A DNA stretch of 13,472 nt from Octopus sinensis. Its lineage: Eukaryota. The stretch spans positions 1-13,472 of the forward strand of contig NW_021826104.1 of NCBI RefSeq assembly GCF_006345805.1, given 5' to 3'. Every line of letters starts with the position of its first letter. The stretch's first letter is position 1. The position numbers were made by a program, and so were the translations under genes. A model generated the notes under the pieces. It ran no database searches. It had not been told where the DNA came from and worked only from the letters and a program-made list of their open reading frames with translations. This document shows, in pieces, positions 1,377 to 12,975 of the stretch.

Positions 1377-1690
1377 TATATATAATATATCTATATATAT
1401 ATATATAATGTGTATCTATCTATATATATATATATATATATATATATAATGTGTATCTATCTTCTATCTATCTATATTAATATATAGTATATATATAATA
1501 TATATATATATAATGTGGATCTATCTATCTATCTGTCTGTCTGGCTATCTGTCAATCTATCTATATTATATATATATTTATATATAATATATATATATAT
1601 ATTATATATATGTAATAAAATAGAATATATGCATATAATAAACATATATGTACGTACCTACCTCTACATGTACATATACACGCATATATG
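1249..1690. repeat. (CCAT)/(CTAT)/(TA)n compound microsatellite
   Basis: Direct inspection. Confidence 0.9.
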
Positions 1691-1963
1691 TGTAAAGGAC
1701 ACCAAAAAGACGTCGAACACATAGAGAGACAAAACACATAGACACAAACCAAGGAACAAGACAAGCAAAAACAAAAAAAAGGAGAGATACAGGACAATAA
1801 GCACAACGAAAAATCCCCTTCTTCAGTCGCTAAGATTTCATCTACTAAACGTTTCGAAGGATAAAAGCGAGACGTATACTTCGAGAAAAATTCCTTCCGC
1901 GAAAGCAAATCAATTAAAATTCTGAGATCTTTTCGCAGAGGGGTAAAAGAAAAAAAAAAGCAA

Positions 1964-2166: not shown

Positions 2167-2216
2167 ATCCGGTGGCATATGCTTCCATATTTGTTGATGT
2201 CATCAGGTACCCGGAT
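2167..2216 (-). ncRNA. Degenerate hammerhead-like motif
   Basis: Minus strand ATCCGGGT-AC-CTGATGA-CAT(N8)ATG-GAA-GCATATGC-C-ACCGGAT. Non-canonical G15.1-C16.1 pair and a 2-nt insertion. Confidence 0.3.
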
Positions 2217-2230
2217 ATTGTGAGCTACAC

Positions 2231-2392
2231 GGTGTAGGCGAGGCTGTGTGGTAAGAAGATGGTTTCCCAACCGCATGGTTCCGGGTTCAGTCCTACTGCG
2301 TGGCACTTAAGGCACGTGTCTTCTGCTATAGCCTCGGGCTGACCAAAGACTAGAGAGTGAATTTGGTAGACGGAAACTGAAAGAAACCTGTC
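2231..2392 (+). mobile_element. SINE family B, 5' head only
   Basis: GGCTGTGTGGTAAG...GGTTCCGGGTTCAGTCC...GACGGAAACTGAAAGAAACCTGTC. Confidence 0.9.
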
Positions 2393-2410
2393 AGACAGTA
2401 GTGGTTTGTA

Positions 2411-2750
2411 TTCTTTTATTTGTTTCAATAATTTCACTGCGGCCATGCTGGAGCAACGCCTTTAGTCGAGCAAATCGACCCCAAGACTTATTCTTTGTAA
2501 GCCTAGTACTAATGTAAGTCTCAGGCGTCAAAAGAAAAGAACAAAAATATGGCCGCTGTTTAATATTAAAACAAAAAGGAATAAACAATACACACACACA
2601 CACACAACACACGCATGCACACACATAGTTATAACTGTATATCTGCATATGCAAACGGCGGGCTTCGTTCAGTTTCCGGCTACCATGTCCACTCTCAAAG
2701 CTTTGGTCGACTCGGACCTATGGTAGAAGATAAGTGCTTCGCAGTGGACA
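2411..2750 (-). mobile_element. SINE family B, degenerate and rearranged
   Basis: Tail at 2411-2510 (GCGGCCATGCTGGAGC...AGTCGAGCAAATCGACCCC), internal CA repeat, head remnant at 2655-2750. Confidence 0.75.
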
Positions 2751-2788
2751 GACAGGAAAACCACAAGCTTGCCTCTGTCGCGTGAGCG

Positions 2789-2799
2789 TGTGTGTGTGA

Positions 2800-2858
<59 letters not shown>
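2789..2858. repeat. (TG)n microsatellite
   Basis: Direct inspection. Confidence 0.97.
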
Positions 2859-2862
<4 letters not shown>

Positions 2863-2963
2863 CTTCCACTGCACTGTTCCGTGGTTTCAGATATTCTATT
2901 GTTGTAGATAATTTGCATGGCGTGAAAATATATTCAGCACCTGACTTTTTGTTATTTTTTGCT

Positions 2964-3050
2964 AAATACTGAAGAGGTATAGTGCCAAGATTACATATTT
3001 CAACAAGCGATGTAATCTCGGCAATAATTTACCGAAACGCGTATACGTTT
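2964..3050 (+). ncRNA. Minimal type I hammerhead ribozyme with long stem II (Penelope-like type)
   Basis: CTGAAGA 2969-2975. Stem II GGTA/TACC extended by TGCC/GGCA and AGATTACAT/ATGTAATCT. GAAA 3034-3037, palindromic loop CGCG, GUA site (cut after 3043). Stem I AAATA/TA(CG)TTT is imperfect. Confidence 0.7.
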
Positions 3051-3094
3051 TATAAAGCATATTACCATTTTTGTTTTCTGGATTTTACCAATAC

Positions 3095-3185
3095 TATATA
3101 TATATATACATACATACACACACATATATATATGCATATATATGTAGTATTTTATGTGTCCGTATATATGTGTTTGTGCGTGTGT
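3095..3185. repeat. (TA)/(CA)/(TG) compound microsatellite
   Basis: Direct inspection. Confidence 0.85.
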
Positions 3186-3322
3186 TCTTTGTGCAGGTGG
3201 GTGGGTATAGAGGTTATGGGTGTATTATTAAGGGTTGATGCTTATTGAATAGTTACTCTGAGTTACCCGATTAAATAGCCGTAGTTCGATTCTAAGAATA
3301 GCTTTCAAGAAAATTCCGTTGA

Positions 3323-3328
3323 TTATAT

Positions 3329-3362
<34 letters not shown>

Positions 3363-3595
3363 GTGTGTGGTATGTATGTATATATGTATTATTTATATAT
3401 ATTAATATATATATATATATGTATGTATATATATATATATATATGTGTGGTGTGTGTGTGTGTGTGTATGTATGTTTGTTTTGTATATATATATGTATAT
3501 ACTATATGTTTGTGTGTGTATCTCTGTGTAAAATATCTGTTATTATATATCGTGTATATGTACATATATAAACACGTGCACACATATACACTAGC

Positions 3596-3640
<45 letters not shown>

Positions 3641-3805
3641 CTATAAAGACACAACATATATGTGTTTATATATATGCATATATATATGTACATATGTATG
3701 TGTTTCTGTATATATATATTTACATACACACATGCACACACACACATAGATACATATACACGTCTACATACATGTATCTATGCACTATGTGTACATGTGT
3801 GCGTG

Positions 3806-3858
<53 letters not shown>

Positions 3859-3951
3859 CATATATATATATATATATATATATATCTATATATATAGATA
3901 TATATATATATACATACTTGCACCAAGAACACCATACATCCACATACATTG

Positions 3952-3991
<40 letters not shown>

Positions 3992-3998
3992 TGTACAT
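3323..3998. repeat. Long compound (TA)n/(TG)n/(CA)n microsatellite field
   Basis: Direct inspection; source of many spurious YI/VC/TH ORFs. Confidence 0.95.
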
Positions 3999-4275
3999 AT
4001 CTTATAAATTGTTGTTGTTTTCTGTTTTAATGGCCACCATCACAAATGCGGTCAATAACAACATTACAATAGACACGATTCAGAAAAAGCCCATTAATGC
4101 CAAACCTCTCGCAGACATTCCTAAATCCAGTAGAATCCATTTCTGCCAACCATTTCAAAAGAAACTATTCAAGCATTCACCAAGACCCATCCTGTCTTTC
4201 GAATAAAGCCATTGGAACATTTCTTTGAATAGGATATCGCCAAAAGTTCGTAACCTCTCCGACTAATTTACTTAC

Positions 4276-4288
4276 CAGTATAAAACAC
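4276..4288 (-). other. Candidate 13-nt microexon
   Basis: Minus strand ...ccttcgttctctgcAG|GTGTTTTATACTG|GTAAGT, with consensus acceptor and donor. Confidence 0.25.
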
Positions 4289-4339
4289 CTGCAGAGAACG
4301 AAGGATATATAGGACAATGGCGGTCTTAGATTTGCAAAA

Positions 4340-4455
4340 ACACGGGATGGTTACGGCTGAATGGCTTTCATCATAGGTCAGCTCGATTATGGCTGACTTG
4401 GGGGGTAAACAGCAACAGCATTAGCAACAATAACAACAGTAGCAGCAACAGCAAC
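4340..4455 (+). mobile_element. Possible retroposon 3' end with (CAA/CAG)n tail
   Basis: Unique segment ending GGGGTAAAC followed by a degenerate trinucleotide tail; single copy in the window. Confidence 0.3.
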
Positions 4456-4473
4456 GATAAGCGTTTCTTGACC

Positions 4474-4760
4474 CTGGCTCTATGGTTAAGAAGCTTGCTT
4501 TTGCAAATGTATAATAACGGATTCAATCCTCTTGTTCGGCGCTCTTTCAGATTGAGTCTTCTGTTATGTTCTCGGATCGGCTGAAGATTTGGGGAGTGGA
4601 AATTTGTATATGGTGAGACTGTGTATATGGTAAGACGTTTGCTGGTCGACCGACCACACGGTTCTGGGTTCAGTCCCTGTCTTCTACTATAGCCTTGGGA
4701 CTACACAAAGCCTTGTGAGTAGATTTGATTGATGGAAACTGTAAGAAGTCCATCATATAT
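4474..4760 (+). mobile_element. Two tandem degenerate SINE family B heads
   Basis: TGGTTAAGAAGCTTGC...GATTCAATCC (4474-4625), then TGGTAAG...GGTTCTGGGTTCAGTCCC/TGTCTTCTACTATAGCC...GGAAACTGTAAGAAGTCCATC (4626-4760), followed by the usual internal microsatellite. Confidence 0.7.
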
Positions 4761-4864
4761 ATATGTGTGTGTGTATGGGGGTGTACATACATCTATGCGT
4801 ACGCATAGATGTGTGTATATATATATATATATATACGGGTGTGTGTGATTGTGTATAGAAGAAT

Positions 4865-5098
4865 ATATTAATAAAAGGAATTTTAGTTTGACAGAAAAAA
4901 ATTGTGAAGCATGACTGTCACCACTACTACATGAACCTGAAGATTGCAGAATTTAATGCATGAAAGTACTAGTTCAATCAGAATGAACATTTAACGTTCT
5001 ATTATTTTATTTTATTTTATTTTATTATATTATATTATATCATTATAAGATTGTAAATAAAACGTGAAAATCAAACAAGGTTGGAATTCCTTTCATTA

Positions 5099-5102
<4 letters not shown>
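4865..5102 (+). mobile_element. Short element with 18-bp inverted termini containing a hammerhead
   Basis: ATATTAATAAAAGGAATT (4865-4882) versus AATTCCTTTCATTAATAT (5085-5102), one mismatch; flanked by microsatellites. Confidence 0.5.
4932..4976 (+). ncRNA. Minimal type I hammerhead ribozyme (Penelope-like type)
   Basis: Perfect stem I TGAAC/GTTCA. CTGAAGA 4937-4943. Stem II TGCA/TGCA after a U-U mismatch. GAAA 4962-4965, palindromic loop GTAC, CUA site (cut between 4971 and 4972). Confidence 0.78.
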
Positions 5103-5128
<26 letters not shown>

Positions 5129-5129
<1 letters not shown>

Positions 5130-5319
5130 AGGAAAGTTTACGAAAATAAACAAAAGACGAAGGCAGGTGGAGTACAAACAAACAAATGTATTAGTATAGC
5201 GCTCAGGAATAGAAAAATTCTTTTATGTTTCGAGCCTACGCTCTTCGACAGAATGATACACAGAAAAAAAGACAAGGAGAGAAAAAAATGTGTGTAGTAG
5301 CTAACGATCTATCATGGCG
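5129..5319 (-). mobile_element. (TA)n-embedded short element with a hammerhead-like core at 5219-5256
   Basis: Sharp boundaries in (TA)n. Minus strand TCATT-CTGTCGAA-GAGC(GTAG)GCTC-GAAA-CATA-AAAGA. Confidence 0.45.
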
Positions 5320-5364
5320 TATATATATATACGACGGGCCTCTTTGAGTTTCTATCCACCAAAT
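5320..5364 (-). mobile_element. SINE family B fragment (end of head next to its microsatellite)
   Basis: TATACGACGGGCCTCTTTGAGTTTCTATCCACCAAAT resembles the reverse complement of ATTTGGTAGACGGAAACTGAAAGAAGCCCGTCG. Confidence 0.6.
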
Positions 5365-5396
5365 AATAATGAAGCGTGCTTATTTATGAGTATAGT

Positions 5397-5432
5397 CGCC
5401 TGACAGGGAAGGTTATACGAAAAGCTTAGGTG
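5397..5432 (+). ncRNA. Degenerate hammerhead remnant
   Basis: CGCC-TGACAGG...C-GAAA-AGCT-TA-GGTG. The 3' half is canonical (palindromic tetraloop, UA, stem I); the CUGANGA box is damaged. Confidence 0.35.
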
Positions 5433-5471
5433 TGGTGTTGTAATTCTAGATACAATACTCGCATTACATAA

Positions 5472-5892: not shown

Positions 5893-5960
5893 CTGTGACG
5901 TCGGCGACGTCGGCTTCATTGGCGGGGACAGCATTTGCGGTGCTTTCGTTGTTGTTGTGA
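5893..5960 (+). CDS. Candidate terminal coding exon encoding a GPI-signal-like C-terminus (xVTSATSASLAGTAFAVLSLLL*)
   Basis: Long T-rich polypyrimidine tract and CAG acceptor (AG 5891-5892); phase-1 frame ends at TGA 5958-5960. No homology evidence. Confidence 0.25.
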
Positions 5961-6192: not shown

Positions 6193-6426
6193 CAAGGCGG
6201 CAAGCTGGCAGAAACGTTAGCACGCCGGGCGAAATGCTTTGCAGTATTTCGTCTGTCTTAACGTTCTGAGTCCAAATTCCGCCGAGGTCGACTTTGCCTT
6301 TCATCCTTTCGGGGTCGATAAATTAAGCACCAGTTACGCACTGGGGTCGATATAACCGACTTAATCCGTCTGTCTGTCTTTGTATATCCCCTCTATGTGT
6401 AGCCCCTTGTGGGCAGTAAAGAAATA
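6193..6426 (+). mobile_element. SINE family C, full length, 9-bp TSD
   Basis: A-box-like TGGCAGAAACG, B-box-like GAGTCCAAATTCC; TSD AGAAATGGC at 6184-6192 and 6427-6435. Confidence 0.92.
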
Positions 6427-6697: not shown

Positions 6698-7273
6698 GGT
6701 AAAAGGTAAATACCCCCTTGATGGCGGCGAGCTGGCAGAATCGTTAGCACGCCGGGCAAAATGCGTAGCCGTTTTTCGCCTGCCGTTACGTTCTGAGTTC
6801 AAATTCCGCCGTGGTCGACTTTGCCTTTCATCCTTTCGGGGTCGATAAATTAAGTACCAGTTACGCACTGGGGTTGATGTAATCGACTTAATCCGTTTGT
6901 CTGTCCTTGTTTGTGTTTAGCCCCTTGTGGGTAGTAAAGAAATAGTTAAATACCCCCTTCGGTCATGAATGACCATGGGATTGCACCTAGAAAGTTCCTT
7001 TCCGAGGCTCAAGGTTGTTTATAGAAGACCTGCAGTCGCCCAAGCATGTCAGGCCTCCCCCTCTGCATGTTATCTATGTTATCCAGAGGAAAGGCAAAGG
7101 CCGATACAGCTTGGATCTAGTGACATAGAAACTCATTTCAACAGTTGGGTGAACTGGAGTAACGTGAAATAAAGTGTCTTGCCCAAGAACACAACACAGC
7201 CTGTCCTGATATCAAACTCACTACCTCATGATTCCGAGCCCGAAGCTCTAAACACTGAGCCATGTGCTTTCAC
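6698..7273 (-). mobile_element. tRNA-derived SINE family D (CORE-like), interrupted by a family C copy
   Basis: Minus strand TGGCTCAGTGTTTAGAGC (A box)...GAGTTTGATATC (B-box-like)...CTTGGGCAAGACACTT, with a (TTTACC)-type tail. Imperfect TSD CTTG(A/C)GTATC at 6687-6696 and 7278-7287. Confidence 0.75.
6720..6946 (+). mobile_element. SINE family C nested in family D, 13-bp TSD
   Basis: TSD TAAATACCCCCTT at 6707-6719 and 6947-6959. Confidence 0.95.
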
Positions 7274-7440: not shown

Positions 7441-8220
7441 CTTTTATCTTTCATTCGCTTTCAGTCATTAGACAGCGGCCATGCTGGAGCATCGCCTTGA
7501 AGAATTTTTAGTCGAATGAATTGAACCCCCACCCCCCACCCAGTACTTGATTTTTAATGCCTGATACTTTTTCTATCGGTCTCTTTTGATGAAGCGCTAA
7601 TTTACAGGGACAACATAGAGATAAAGACACACACATATATACACGCATATGTGTGTGTGTGTATACAAACACATACATATACGACAAGCTGCTTTCAGTT
7701 TCCATTTATCAAATCCATAGGAGTGGCTGTGTGGTAAGTAGCTTGCTAACCAACCACATGGTTCCGGGTTCAGTCCCACTGCGTGGAATCTTGGGCAAGT
7801 GTCTTCTGCTATAGCCCCGGGCCGACCAATGCCTTGCGAGTGGATTTGGTAGACGGAAACTGAAAGAAGCCTGTCGTATATATGTATATATTTATATATA
7901 TGTGCGTGTGTGTGTGTTTGTCCCCCTAGCATTGCCTGACAACCGATGCTGGTGTGTTTACGTCCCCGTCACTTAGCGGTTCGGCAAAAGAGACCGATAG
8001 AATAAGTACTGGGCTTACAAAGAATGAGTTCCGGGGTCGATTTGCTCGACTAAAGGCGGTGCTCCAGCATGGCCGCAGTCAAATGACTGAAACAAGTAAA
8101 AGAGTAAGGCTTTGGTAGTCCTGAGGCTATGGTAGAAGGAACTTGTCCAAGATACTATGCAATGAGACTGAACCCAAAACCTAGTGTTTAGGAAGCAAGC
8201 ATCTTCCCACACAGCCACGC
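7441..8220 (-). mobile_element. Old SINE family B copy split by a younger antisense copy
   Basis: Parts 7441-7717 and 8106-8220 are collinear with the reverse complement of family B. Confidence 0.85.
7720..8107 (+). mobile_element. SINE family B, full length, young
   Basis: A-box TGGCTGTGTGG, B-box-like GGTTCAGTCCC, internal (TA)(TG) tract, tail AAGTAAAAGAGTAA; near-identical to 10157-10559. Confidence 0.95.
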
Positions 8221-8597
8221 TTGTCTAGGCGGAGTAAAATTTATTCAAATCTGATGAATGTTGATAATTATTTGGTTGTCAAGTTTATTCGACTGTCTGA
8301 CAACCGTGTGTACAATGAAACACGTGACTAGCGATACGATATTTAGTTACTAAGAAAGCCTAATGTGTCACGAAACAATTTATTTCAAAAGAAGTGTGTC
8401 GCCAACGTGAACAGTTTGGGAAGCCGTGGTCTAAGTTGAAACACGACAGAAAAAACTCGTGTGACGCACAATAAATCCTGCCTAGAGATCAATATATTCC
8501 GTGTTGCTTAAGATATGAGCGCACCGAGTAATATTCTGGGCCTCTACGGGTCTGGGGACACAGTGCTAATATATACATACTGTGGTAATCTATACAC

Positions 8598-8932
8598 TTT
8601 CGATTCCCAGACCGGGCGTTGTGAGTGTTTATTGAGCGAAAACACCTAAAAGTTCCACGAGGCTCCGGCAGGGGATGGTGGTGATCCCTACTGTACTCTT
8701 TCACCACAACTTTCTCTCACTCTTACTTCCTGTTTCTGTTGTACCTGTATTTCAAGGGGCCGGCCTTGTCACTCTCTGTGTCACGCTGAATATCCCCGAG
8801 AACTAGGTTAAGGGTGCACGTGTCTGTGGAGTGCTCAGCCACTTACACGTTAATTCTCACGAGCAGGCTGTTCCGTTGATATGGATCAACCGGAACCCTC
8901 ATCGTCGTAACCGACGGAGTGCTTCCACCACC
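8598..8932 (+). mobile_element. SINE family A, 5'-truncated, tail type 2, 11-bp TSD
   Basis: Starts within the B box. TSD AATCTATACAC at 8587-8597 and 8933-8943. Ends in a (CCA)n tail. Confidence 0.92.
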
Positions 8933-9856: not shown

Positions 9857-10088
9857 CTATTTCTATACTACCCACAAGGGGCTAAACACAGAGGGGACAA
9901 ACAAGGACAGACAAAGGGATTAAGTCGATTACGTCAAACCCAGTGCGTAACTGGTACTTAATTTATCCACCCCGAAAGGATGAAAGGTAAAGTCGACCTC
10001 GGCGGAATTTGAACTCACAACGTAACGACAGACGAAATACCGCTAAACATTGCGCCCGGCGTGCTAACGATTCTGCCAGCTCGCCGCC
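9857..10088 (-). mobile_element. SINE family C, full length
   Basis: Reverse complement of 6193-6426 and 6720-6946. Confidence 0.95.
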
Positions 10089-10156
10089 CTAGTAAATTTG
10101 AGAATAGAGCAGCTAAGTTGGCTCCCAAAAGTGTTATTTATACGGAATATAAGCAA

Positions 10157-10321
10157 GGAGTGGCTGTGTGGTAAGTAGCTTGCTAACCAACCGCATGGTT
10201 CCGGGTTCAGTCCCACTGCGTGGCATCTTGGGCAAGTGTCTTCTGCTATAGCCCCGGGCCGACCAATGCCTTGTGGGTGGATTTGGTAGACGGAAACTGA
10301 AAGAAGCCCGTCGCAAATATG

Positions 10322-10352
<31 letters not shown>

Positions 10353-10559
10353 TTGTGTGTCTGCGTTTGTCCCCCTAGCATTGCTTGACAACCGATGCTG
10401 GTGTGTGTACGTCCCCGTAACATTAGCGGTTCGGCAAAAAGAGACCGATAGAATAAGTACTGGGCTTACAAAGAATAAGTCTCGGGGTCGATTTGCTCGA
10501 CTAAAGGCGGTGCTCCAGCATGGCCGCAGTCAAATGACAGAAACAAGTAAAAGAGTAAA
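10157..10559 (+). mobile_element. SINE family B, full length, young
   Basis: Same structure as 7720-8107. Confidence 0.95.
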
Positions 10560-10955
10560 GCGCAGAGAATGCACCAGCAAAAGATTCTACGATAAGGACG
10601 AGGAAATATTTGGTGTTAGAAAGAAAACCATGGTTGAATTCTACTTAATGTTCTTATATTCTGTTAAAAATAGCACTGGTAAAAGATTTGAGCATTTTAA
10701 AAATGTGGCTTTCGAATTTGATGCTTTTAGATCCAAAGTATTTTGACAACAACGCAGATAAAGCGAATAAATTGGAATTTTTAGCTGACTTGTATATAAG
10801 ATGTCAGTCACAGTCAAACTAAAATCCTACAAGAATTTCATTCATTCAGAGACAAAGAAAGAAAGGAAGAAGAATTCTAGCAGAGAGGTCACTTCGTGTA
10901 TCGAGAAACTGACCGTCAACAGTATTTAAATTCCTCGTCACAAATGTCATATCTA

Positions 10956-11317
10956 TTCCTTCATTTGTCTCAGTCGTTTGGCTGCGGCCATGCTAGAGCA
11001 CCGCCTTGTAGTGGTTTTGTCGAACGATTCGACTCCAGGACCTAATTTTTTAAAGACAAGTACTTGTTCTATTGGCCTCTTTTGACGAACACCGAACAGC
11101 TAAGGGAACATAAACACACCAACACCGATGGTCGAGCGATGATGGGGTGGGGACAAACACAGACACAAAGACACACACACACATACATACATATATATAT
11201 ATATATTGGCCTGCTCGCTTAGCCAGCGGGGTGGCGTCATTCGAAGGCTAAAACAATGCGAACGCATTGTGACTAGCGATGTGTAACAACATCTGATGGT
11301 CTGGTCGGTCACGTGAT

Positions 11318-11360
<43 letters not shown>

Positions 11361-12551: not shown

Positions 12552-12975
12552 GGATCGTTTCGGTTTGAACGACAGTTTTTTTCTAGCGGTGTCATATGAA
12601 ATTGTCACCCATAATTATGACCCTAGTATCGATCTATTGCATTTCAATCTGTTTTAGGGTTAGGGTTAGGGGTGGGGGGAAGGGTATCTTTTTTTCTTCA
12701 GAAATGTAAATAAACCCAATCTGTTTCTTAAACGAGGGATATATTCATACGGCACATAATGTTTTTTACCTCAATAGATGTCATTGATTGGTTGAAATTG
12801 CAGAAATTGAAGGAAAAAAACAACTACAAATATCTTAAAAACCATATAGAATTTTCTCAATAAAGCCAAAAGAAAAAGATGTTTTATAAACACATTCTAC
12901 CAGTATACGAAGTTTAAAAGTGTTTAGTTACGTGGAAATTATTTTAAAAAACTGCCGTTCAAACCGAAAAGATCC
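12552..12975. mobile_element. MITE (non-autonomous TIR element)
   Basis: 30-bp TIRs at 12552-12581 and 12946-12975 (28/30 match). AATTTT on both flanks (12545-12550, 12977-12982). No ORF. Confidence 0.88.
12654..12684 (+). repeat. Internal (TTAGGG)3 plus G-runs, G-quadruplex-capable
   Basis: TTAGGGTTAGGGTTAGGGGTGGGGGGAAGGG. Confidence 0.8.

Follow-up and report, generated by a model that had tools for sequence, protein, structure and literature searches.

Minimal type I hammerhead ribozymes are known from the pseudo-long terminal repeats (pLTRs) of Penelope-like retroelements and from thousands of dispersed single copies of many families; as published, a single minimal motif does not cleave and dimers cleave weakly (PMC4209133). 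Octopus Naiads are listed with a preference for (TA)n, and Naiad_Ovul is flagged 'HHR_half_core', but in Naiads generally no canonical hammerhead has been reported, merely cores or half cores (PMC8557442). A rearranged hammerhead, type SGC, known from environmental RNA, has been shown to cleave (PMC10085705). Here we compare these systems with a 13,472-nt stretch of Octopus sinensis DNA (RefSeq assembly GCF_006345805.1, contig NW_021826104.1), referred to as a whole as the window. A preliminary description had placed five short islands with hammerhead cores, I1 to I5, at 2167-5432 and assigned them to several families of microsatellite-targeting, ribozyme-carrying non-autonomous retroelements. 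This observation is partly confirmed and its interpretation partly supported: the cluster is of a known kind and was overcounted by two islands, and the description overlooked both a U at core position 6 (U6) throughout the I4 family and a rearranged hammerhead just upstream. What is new here is one core variant (U6) inside the cluster and one wiring (predicted split S-G-C) bordering it, each with a predicted cut site.

Most of the window, which is animal DNA, is taken up by microsatellites (57 tandem-repeat rows) and by fragments of a small number of dispersed repeats, which we take to resemble octopus short interspersed elements (SINEs). Microsatellites account for 2,603 of the 13,472 bases, and the remaining 10,869 were used for dinucleotide shuffles; evidence on families came from contigs of public sequencing runs and from published consensi and papers. 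It is quite probable that what the stretch preserves are eroded, solitary tail ends of several repeats that have no relation to one another, likely from Penelope-like retroelements or non-autonomous derivatives of these, lying among microsatellites and SINE pieces. Sequence comparison bears out the claim that the islands have no primary similarity to one another. Three of them carry hammerhead motifs that stand above chance or are backed by a family, and the proposal of several unrelated hammerhead-bearing repeats of the minimal, Penelope-like type is to that extent supported, with I4 being very abundant and ending in (TA)n; I1 fails in the core, and I5, for which no family was seen, lies at chance level. 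The three islands are as follows.

2969-3045, plus strand: island I2, a minimal type I hammerhead (strict descriptor match 2969-3043; predicted cut after 3043)
4932-4976, plus strand: island I3, a minimal type I hammerhead with an exact core (predicted cut after 4971)
5131-5318, minus strand: the I4 element, one copy of a very abundant repeat, bordered at its 3' end by (TA)n (5099-5129)
5219-5256, minus strand: the I4 hammerhead, with a 4-bp stem II and a 2-nt loop III (predicted cut between 5224 and 5223)

I2 is the sole match of the strict type I descriptor in the window (0 of 150 shuffles) and combines an exact core with a 4-bp stem II bearing a long extension, the loop CGCG and a stem I of merely 2 bp; its fold has a z of -2.82. 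The pattern of I3, which has a 5-bp stem I, a 4-bp stem II closed by U4944.U4961 and the loop GUAC, arose in 0 of 400 shuffles, the descriptor having been drawn after the island was seen. Both islands possess the CUGANGA core together with GAAA, A15.1-U16.1, a palindromic loop III and H17. A permuted reading of I3 was rejected, as it rested on one match with a core mismatch and was weaker than the type I fold. About 30 nt 5' of the I2 core, 2918-2941 (plus strand) may be the end of a Penelope-like open reading frame (ORF), readable in two frames; in both it presumably resembles the last helix of a GIY-YIG domain.

The motif of GAAA, palindromic tetraloop and UA, on which the preliminary description relied, does occur at 3034-3043 (CGCG), 4962-4971 (GTAC) and 5419-5428 (AGCT). 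By itself it is a poor marker, occurring 4 times outside the microsatellites of the window, where shuffles average 1.9 and 55 of 400 contain at least 4; compared with shuffled controls, I2 and I3 exceed the background, and I5 and the bare motif do not.

The islands share with the type I hammerheads of Penelope pLTRs the C-G-S order, a one-pair stem III with a palindromic loop, a short stem I, an extra base after position 9 (I3, I4), G10.1-C11.1 (I2, I4) and a U-rich 5' flank, and they belong, as many of the published families do, to unrelated families mostly present as single dispersed copies (PMC4209133). They differ from those elements in the family-wide U6 of I4 and in being known here without a linked ORF or pLTR pair. 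I3 in turn likely derives from a Hydra-clade element, judging from features shared with the hammerheads of that clade: a U after position 9 that faces a U before GAAA and closes a 4-bp stem II as a U.U pair (14 of the 26 Hydra-clade rows of File S2), and a stem I of 4-5 bp (PMC8557442). Hammerheads whose stem II starts from a U10.1.U11.1 pair have also been described from nature (PMC3088659), for instance axolotl HHR_Amex2 (PMC7229834). Hydra-clade stems III are longer, with 8-10 nt between A14 and position 17 and mostly a loop of 1-3 nt (PMC8557442), whereas stem III of I3 is a 6-nt palindrome without the 3-4 pairs beyond the core that mark the clade. Preference for (TA)n is listed for 26 of the 27 Hydra-clade families with metadata, and the clade occurs in Octopus bimaculoides (PMC8557442).

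Among the islands, family evidence was obtained for I4, an element of 188 nt without an ORF. Contigs of four runs were placed at 80% likeness on the region 5130-5460 (19,920, 2,267, 5,097 and 3,520 contigs, those of the SINE piece at 5320-5364 included). Depth over I4 is nonzero in all four runs and reaches millions as against tens per contig, which marks a very abundant repeat, although summed contig depth does not equal copy number. In 59 contigs from run X3 the loose ends at 5131 continue as (AT)n, and at the level of families the earlier claim of adjacency to microsatellites is borne out for I4 only; in general such closeness is weak evidence, because 2,603 of the 13,472 bases are microsatellite. 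In run X13 depth is 2,832-3,566 over the hammerhead (5214-5249) and at most 60 in 5166-5201 and 5262-5297, and in run X17 it is 1.0-1.7 million over the hammerhead against 20,000-197,000 in the same flanks. The hammerhead is thus the best-kept part of the family in four runs, which bear three organism labels. I4 contigs also occur in run X23, which is tentatively labelled as RNA.

The copy in the window has the core CUGUCGA, with U at position 6 (5248), a variable position 7 (5247) and an extra A after position 9, and is matched by the type I descriptor when one core change and any loop are permitted. It bears two private defects, at 5226 and 5254, where the letters of the family majority restore the palindromic loop and stem I; this copy has therefore lost its own palindrome, and its self-dimer energy is +3.4 kcal/mol. 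In the family, polymorphic places within 5220-5255 include position 7, at which all four letters occur, and position 17 (5224), which is A or U. Position 6 shows no alternative letter at or above 8 in 100, the threshold used for it, in any of the four runs, and the family core is therefore CUGUNGA. Majority stems are 4-5 bp (stem I) and 4 bp (stem II), and stem II with its 2-nt loop III resembles the Acropora digitifera Neptune row of Fig. S3 in PMC4209133. Since the family has GAAA and, through its majority letter at 5226, the palindromic loop III, but not A at position 6, I4 is filed as a variant, not a member, of the minimal type I hammerheads of Penelope-like elements.

How unusual U6 is was assessed in metagenome contigs, using the same stem II as in I4 and leaving positions 6 and 7 open, which gave 106 matches at 105 loci from 8 of 64 parts. 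After 40 matches had been dropped, the 66 hammerhead-shaped ones had A6 in 64 cases, C6 in 2 and U6 in none; all 106 comprised A6 96, C6 6, U6 3 and G6 1, and no U6 match was hammerhead-shaped. Positions 7 and 17 vary in the 66 as they do in I4, and a dinucleotide tract lies within 300 nt downstream in merely 6 of them. When the islands were compared with these loci, the I4 hammerhead itself was the sole match; the I4 pattern had 0 matches in metagenome contigs, and the U6 pattern had 52 in viral contigs, 0 of them with both stems of at least 3 pairs. U6 is likewise absent from the 56 rows of Fig. S3 (PMC4209133) and the 34 rows of File S2 (PMC8557442), both of them sets built with descriptors that require A6. 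In the literature searched, where other papers were covered by listings or the beginnings of abstracts, no published U6 core was found. Among the metagenome loci, two hammerhead-shaped ones with C6 (L082 and L111) are single copies and may reflect decay, and another locus (L054, 1501-1680) has a pair of minimal hammerheads, almost the same in sequence and separated by 125 nt, one on each strand, an arrangement that has been reported for inverted pLTRs.

The second novelty lies upstream of the cluster as it was first delimited. A descriptor for all six block orders, with stems of 4, 4 and 3 extra pairs, was run on the window, and its sole match was at 1813-1880 on the minus strand, in the order S-G-C and with an exact core. 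This order was obtained in 0 of 400 shuffles and any block order in 2 of 400. The features of this element, all on the minus strand, are listed here.

1685-1950, minus strand: multicopy repeat between TA-rich tracts, carrying the rearranged hammerhead
1814-1944, minus strand: S-G-C hammerhead with a predicted split core, predicted cut between 1871 and 1870
1944-1939, 1938-1929:1905-1898 and 1897-1892, minus strand: upstream strand, consisting of Pa', hairpin Pb and Pc' (from helix energies)
1875-1872:1852-1849 and 1870-1866:1831-1827, minus strand: stem III and stem I (from the descriptor match)
1861-1856, 1855-1852, 1826-1820 and 1819-1814, minus strand: Pc, GAAA, CUGAAGA and Pa (from descriptor and energies)

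Contigs placed on 1685-1950 numbered 1,503 in X3, 123 in X9 (with a depth peak at 1802-1870, on the motif), 3 in X13 and 0 in X17, and at the threshold of 6 in 100 used for this family no alternative letter appears in the core, stem I or stem III (X3, X9). In the predicted pairing, the upstream strand forms helix Pa with the segment that follows CUGAAGA and helix Pc with the one that precedes GAAA, and hairpin Pb lies between them. These helices, at -8.5 (Pa), -7.9 (Pb) and -6.5 kcal/mol (Pc), are each stronger than a plain stem II formed with the strand right after CUGAAGA, which has 4 bp, two of them G.U, and a duplex energy of -4.5 kcal/mol. Both partner strands occurred in the required order in 16 of 20,000 shuffles, a count made post hoc, and a common variant at 1814 gives Pa a sixth pair. 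It thus appears likely, as a structural model, that the core at 1814-1944 depends for its completion on a strand lying upstream, from which the 5' side of stem II would come as well. The minimum-energy fold without pseudoknots keeps Pa and Pb and lacks Pc, stem I and stem III, so that folding into the active form is a prediction.

The element at 1814-1944 has in common with type SGC the block order S-G-C, the exact core, stem III, a stem I of 5 bp and the shortness of the linker that leads from stem I to the segment ahead of GAAA (PMC10085705). It differs in residing in an animal genomic repeat rather than in environmental RNA, and in that the strand after CUGANGA likely pairs upstream, against the assumption of an uninterrupted block C made in PMC10085705. 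The tails of Naiad_Ovul and Naiad_Obim (PMC8557442), compared by eye as all Naiad tails here were, have the same helix order as 1944-1814 shortly before their 3' end. In Naiad_Ovul stem I is CUGCCC/GGGCAG, as opposed to UCGCU/AGCGA at 1814-1944, and Pc is GACACC/GGUGUC, as opposed to GAAGGA/UCCUUC. The Pa helix of Naiad_Ovul contains a single mismatch as well as two G.U pairs. Because the letters differ in every helix, the 1685-1950 element belongs to a family other than these two. Beside (TA)n it shows the layout of a Naiad tail, by eye rather than by program alignment, with a 266-nt tail present, and is likely, on this comparison of sequences, the tail of a Naiad-type element, whose full ORF would combine an N-terminal GIY-YIG domain, a CxC linker and a reverse transcriptase. 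Among the 12 Naiad tails inspected, several of them incomplete or partly seen, the split S-G-C layout is clean in two near-identical ones (Naiad_Obim, Naiad_Ovul) and partial in that of Esco, C-S-G is found in two nematode ones, and 7 have no recognised layout. The two nematode tails, of Naiad_Hcon and Naiad-2_Nbra, each end in a clean C-S-G hammerhead with an exact core, stems of 5-8 pairs and an extra flanking helix, the stem letters differing between the two. Under the same coverage of the literature as above, no permuted or Naiad hammerheads were found beyond PMC10085705 and PMC8557442.

Taken with what has been published on Penelope-like elements, these observations suggest a common course of events. 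The RNA of a parent element would be cut by its hammerheads, most likely as dimers in which two of them pair their palindromic stems III, and the cut would fall after position 17; a Penelope-type reverse transcriptase would copy the cut RNA, and a GIY-YIG endonuclease would insert the product at (TA)n. Truncation at the 5' end would leave the tail alone, and the shared target preference would gather unrelated families. The cluster thus likely reflects many families with a common (TA)n target and not a working unit, and its lone copies are probably inert. For the 1685-1950 hammerhead, wired S-G-C, an upstream segment would provide the 5' strand of stem II, and this hammerhead would therefore fold as a monomer. 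With a little less than even confidence, we propose that Penelope-like elements use at least three designs side by side here: the dimer type, a working U6 variant amplified to very high copy number, and a monomeric split-core hammerhead in Naiad tails, the last modelled with CUGANGA and the 5' strand of stem II on different strands of a four-way junction.

Several results weigh against reading the stretch as worn tails of Penelope-like elements. Pfam detected no reverse transcriptase or GIY-YIG domain in 10 ORFs of the window, and neither was present in the 42 ORFs upstream of the look-alike metagenome hammerheads. The short motifs of I3 and I4 were not found in the consensus file of Naiad, Chlamys and Hydra elements. 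For I4 and the 1685-1950 family no compensatory changes are listed at the thresholds used, stem I is down to 4 pairs in one I4 subfamily, and within the I4 hammerhead the share of variable places (4 of 36) is not clearly lower than outside it (22 of 132). Changes at position 6 are, moreover, known to slow hammerheads (PMC3088659, PMC7151607).

This last point leads to the alternative that survives best, and which we regard as quite possible: the U6 motif of I4 no longer cuts and persists because the reverse transcriptase that mobilises the element uses it as a structural or recognition signal, or because a single, highly successful master copy has carried it along. It accords with the absence of U6 from the 66 metagenome hammerheads and from the two published sets, the latter selected for A6, and with the lack of covariation in stems I and II. 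The natural A6C variant of phage Bcep176, like I4 a change of position 6 in an otherwise whole core, is strongly slowed in Mg2+; yet it does cleave, and better in Mn2+ (PMC3088659, PMC7151607). That variant is one phage sequence, whereas I4 is U6 in a very abundant animal repeat with a predicted cut site. Loss of cutting also sits uneasily with the fixation of the remaining core letters, with variation at positions 7 and 17 that matches exactly what working hammerheads show, and with retention of the motif in subfamilies that have different flanks and come under three organism labels.

For the split-core design proposed at 1685-1950, the competing explanation is a plain type-SGC hammerhead whose upstream helices are an off-state or unrelated. 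Type SGC cleaves (PMC10085705), and the 4-bp stem II it would use does exist in spite of its two G.U pairs. We nevertheless consider this unlikely in view of the greater strength of Pa, Pb and Pc, the rarity of both partner strands in order among shuffles and the variant at 1814, which extends Pa; in Naiad_Ovul, too, a plain stem II would have about 2 pairs as opposed to 6 Watson-Crick pairs with the upstream strand (by eye, PMC8557442).

The islands also resemble the metazoan non-LTR retrozymes, short non-coding repeats with type I hammerheads and a link to Penelope, as here (PMC7229834; bioRxiv 10.64898/2026.07.22.740005), and might be solo monomers of such elements spreading via small circular RNAs. 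Solo monomers do occur, retrozymes have been argued to derive from pLTRs (bioRxiv 10.64898/2026.07.22.740005), and the small, non-coding I4 would suit such an origin. It is improbable all the same: tandem units are missing, no island having a second copy inside the window; a joint of the end of I4 to its start is absent among the well-supported joints listed; the predicted cut in I4 is internal, some 93 nt into the element, rather than terminal; and the motifs are minimal rather than canonical with the loop-loop contacts described in PMC7229834.

The preliminary description had also suggested that the islands could process host transcripts. That these genomic copies cut host pre-mRNA and shape host transcripts in this way now seems very improbable. 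In favour of it are the 1685-1950 copy, with its intact core and all stems in one molecule, and a possible host exon at 5893-5960, read from the sequence. On the plus strand this segment has the look of a terminal coding exon, with a pyrimidine tract and AG acceptor, about 21 small or hydrophobic residues and a stop, resembling a glycosylphosphatidylinositol-anchor signal; if the exon is real, I2 and I3 lie in sense orientation in the preceding intron. Yet I2 and I3 cannot pair with each other, because their palindromes differ, and cutting of host RNA by I2-I4 is unlikely because the copies are lone and unlike in palindrome and that of I4 is lost from a damaged copy, published monomers being inactive (PMC4209133). 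The predicted cores of I4 and of the 1685-1950 element are, besides, outside their minimum-energy folds.

The two islands that did not hold up are these.

2167-2215, minus strand: island I1, with CUGAUGA at 2206-2200, GAAG in place of GAAA and no proximal stem I
5400-5428, plus strand: island I5, with GAAA-AGCU-UA and a 6-bp helix, without CUGANGA

I1 matches no hammerhead descriptor, neither type I nor any of the six block orders, its fold z is -0.5, and it is decayed or possibly a chance occurrence. The combination of GAAA, A15.1-U16.1, palindromic loop III and H17 is present in I5 and absent from I1, and in neither do stems I and II flank a core. The idea that I5 is what decay has left of a hammerhead, its 6-bp helix being stem II, was rejected, since the I5 pattern arises in 92 of 400 shuffles. 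None of the four runs has any contig depth over 5370-5460, where a large family would show, though such a hole alone proves nothing. A chance origin of every motif within AT-rich remains of repeats can hardly be maintained: it fits the bare motif, I5 and possibly I1, and an Rfam search of the window (E up to 10; 105 matches, nearly all microsatellite artefacts) returned 0 hammerheads, but it is refuted for I2, I3 and the S-G-C element, which beat the shuffles, and for I4, which has a family pattern.

The surroundings of the islands comprise the following features.

2236-2392 (plus strand), 2409-2513 (minus strand) and 2590-2730 (minus strand): three pieces of the commonest repeat of the window, from repeat comparison, presumably a SINE
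2788-2859, unstranded: (GT)36 microsatellite at the left edge of I2 (tandem-repeat scan)
3324-3916, unstranded: long degenerate (TA)n/(CA)n tract (tandem-repeat scan)
5320-5364, minus strand: short SINE-like piece forming a separate depth block, with loose ends running on into SINE sequence found elsewhere in the window

At least four SINE-like families have left numerous pieces, which often sit within TA-rich tracts or are linked through them: 7719-8107 and 10156-10560; 528-731, 6196-6426, 6723-6944 and 9858-10090; 78-210 and 8581-8930; and 206-330 and 11206-11320. A scan of the window found no tRNA. At 3992-4420 about 430 nt are not microsatellite and have broken reading frames and no Pfam match; near 4274-4286 the minus strand has a 13-nt stretch between good acceptor and donor signals. 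Three perfect TTAGGG units lie at 12654-12671, inside the window.

As originally framed, the cluster is what one would expect of a genome with an abundance of (TA)n-targeting Penelope-like elements. The U6 family offers a direct test of whether Penelope hammerheads must cut: either a core change thought to be harmful is tolerated in nature, or the I4 motif is kept for another job. If the three-design proposal is true, Naiads do not lack hammerheads but carry non-circularly rearranged ones, split S-G-C in octopus and C-S-G in nematodes. Should the hammerhead at 1814-1944 cleave, its wiring would be additional to the six block orders that the literature searched takes into account, non-circular permutations would move from environmental RNA into animal genomes, and the seeming lack of ribozymes in Naiads would be explained.

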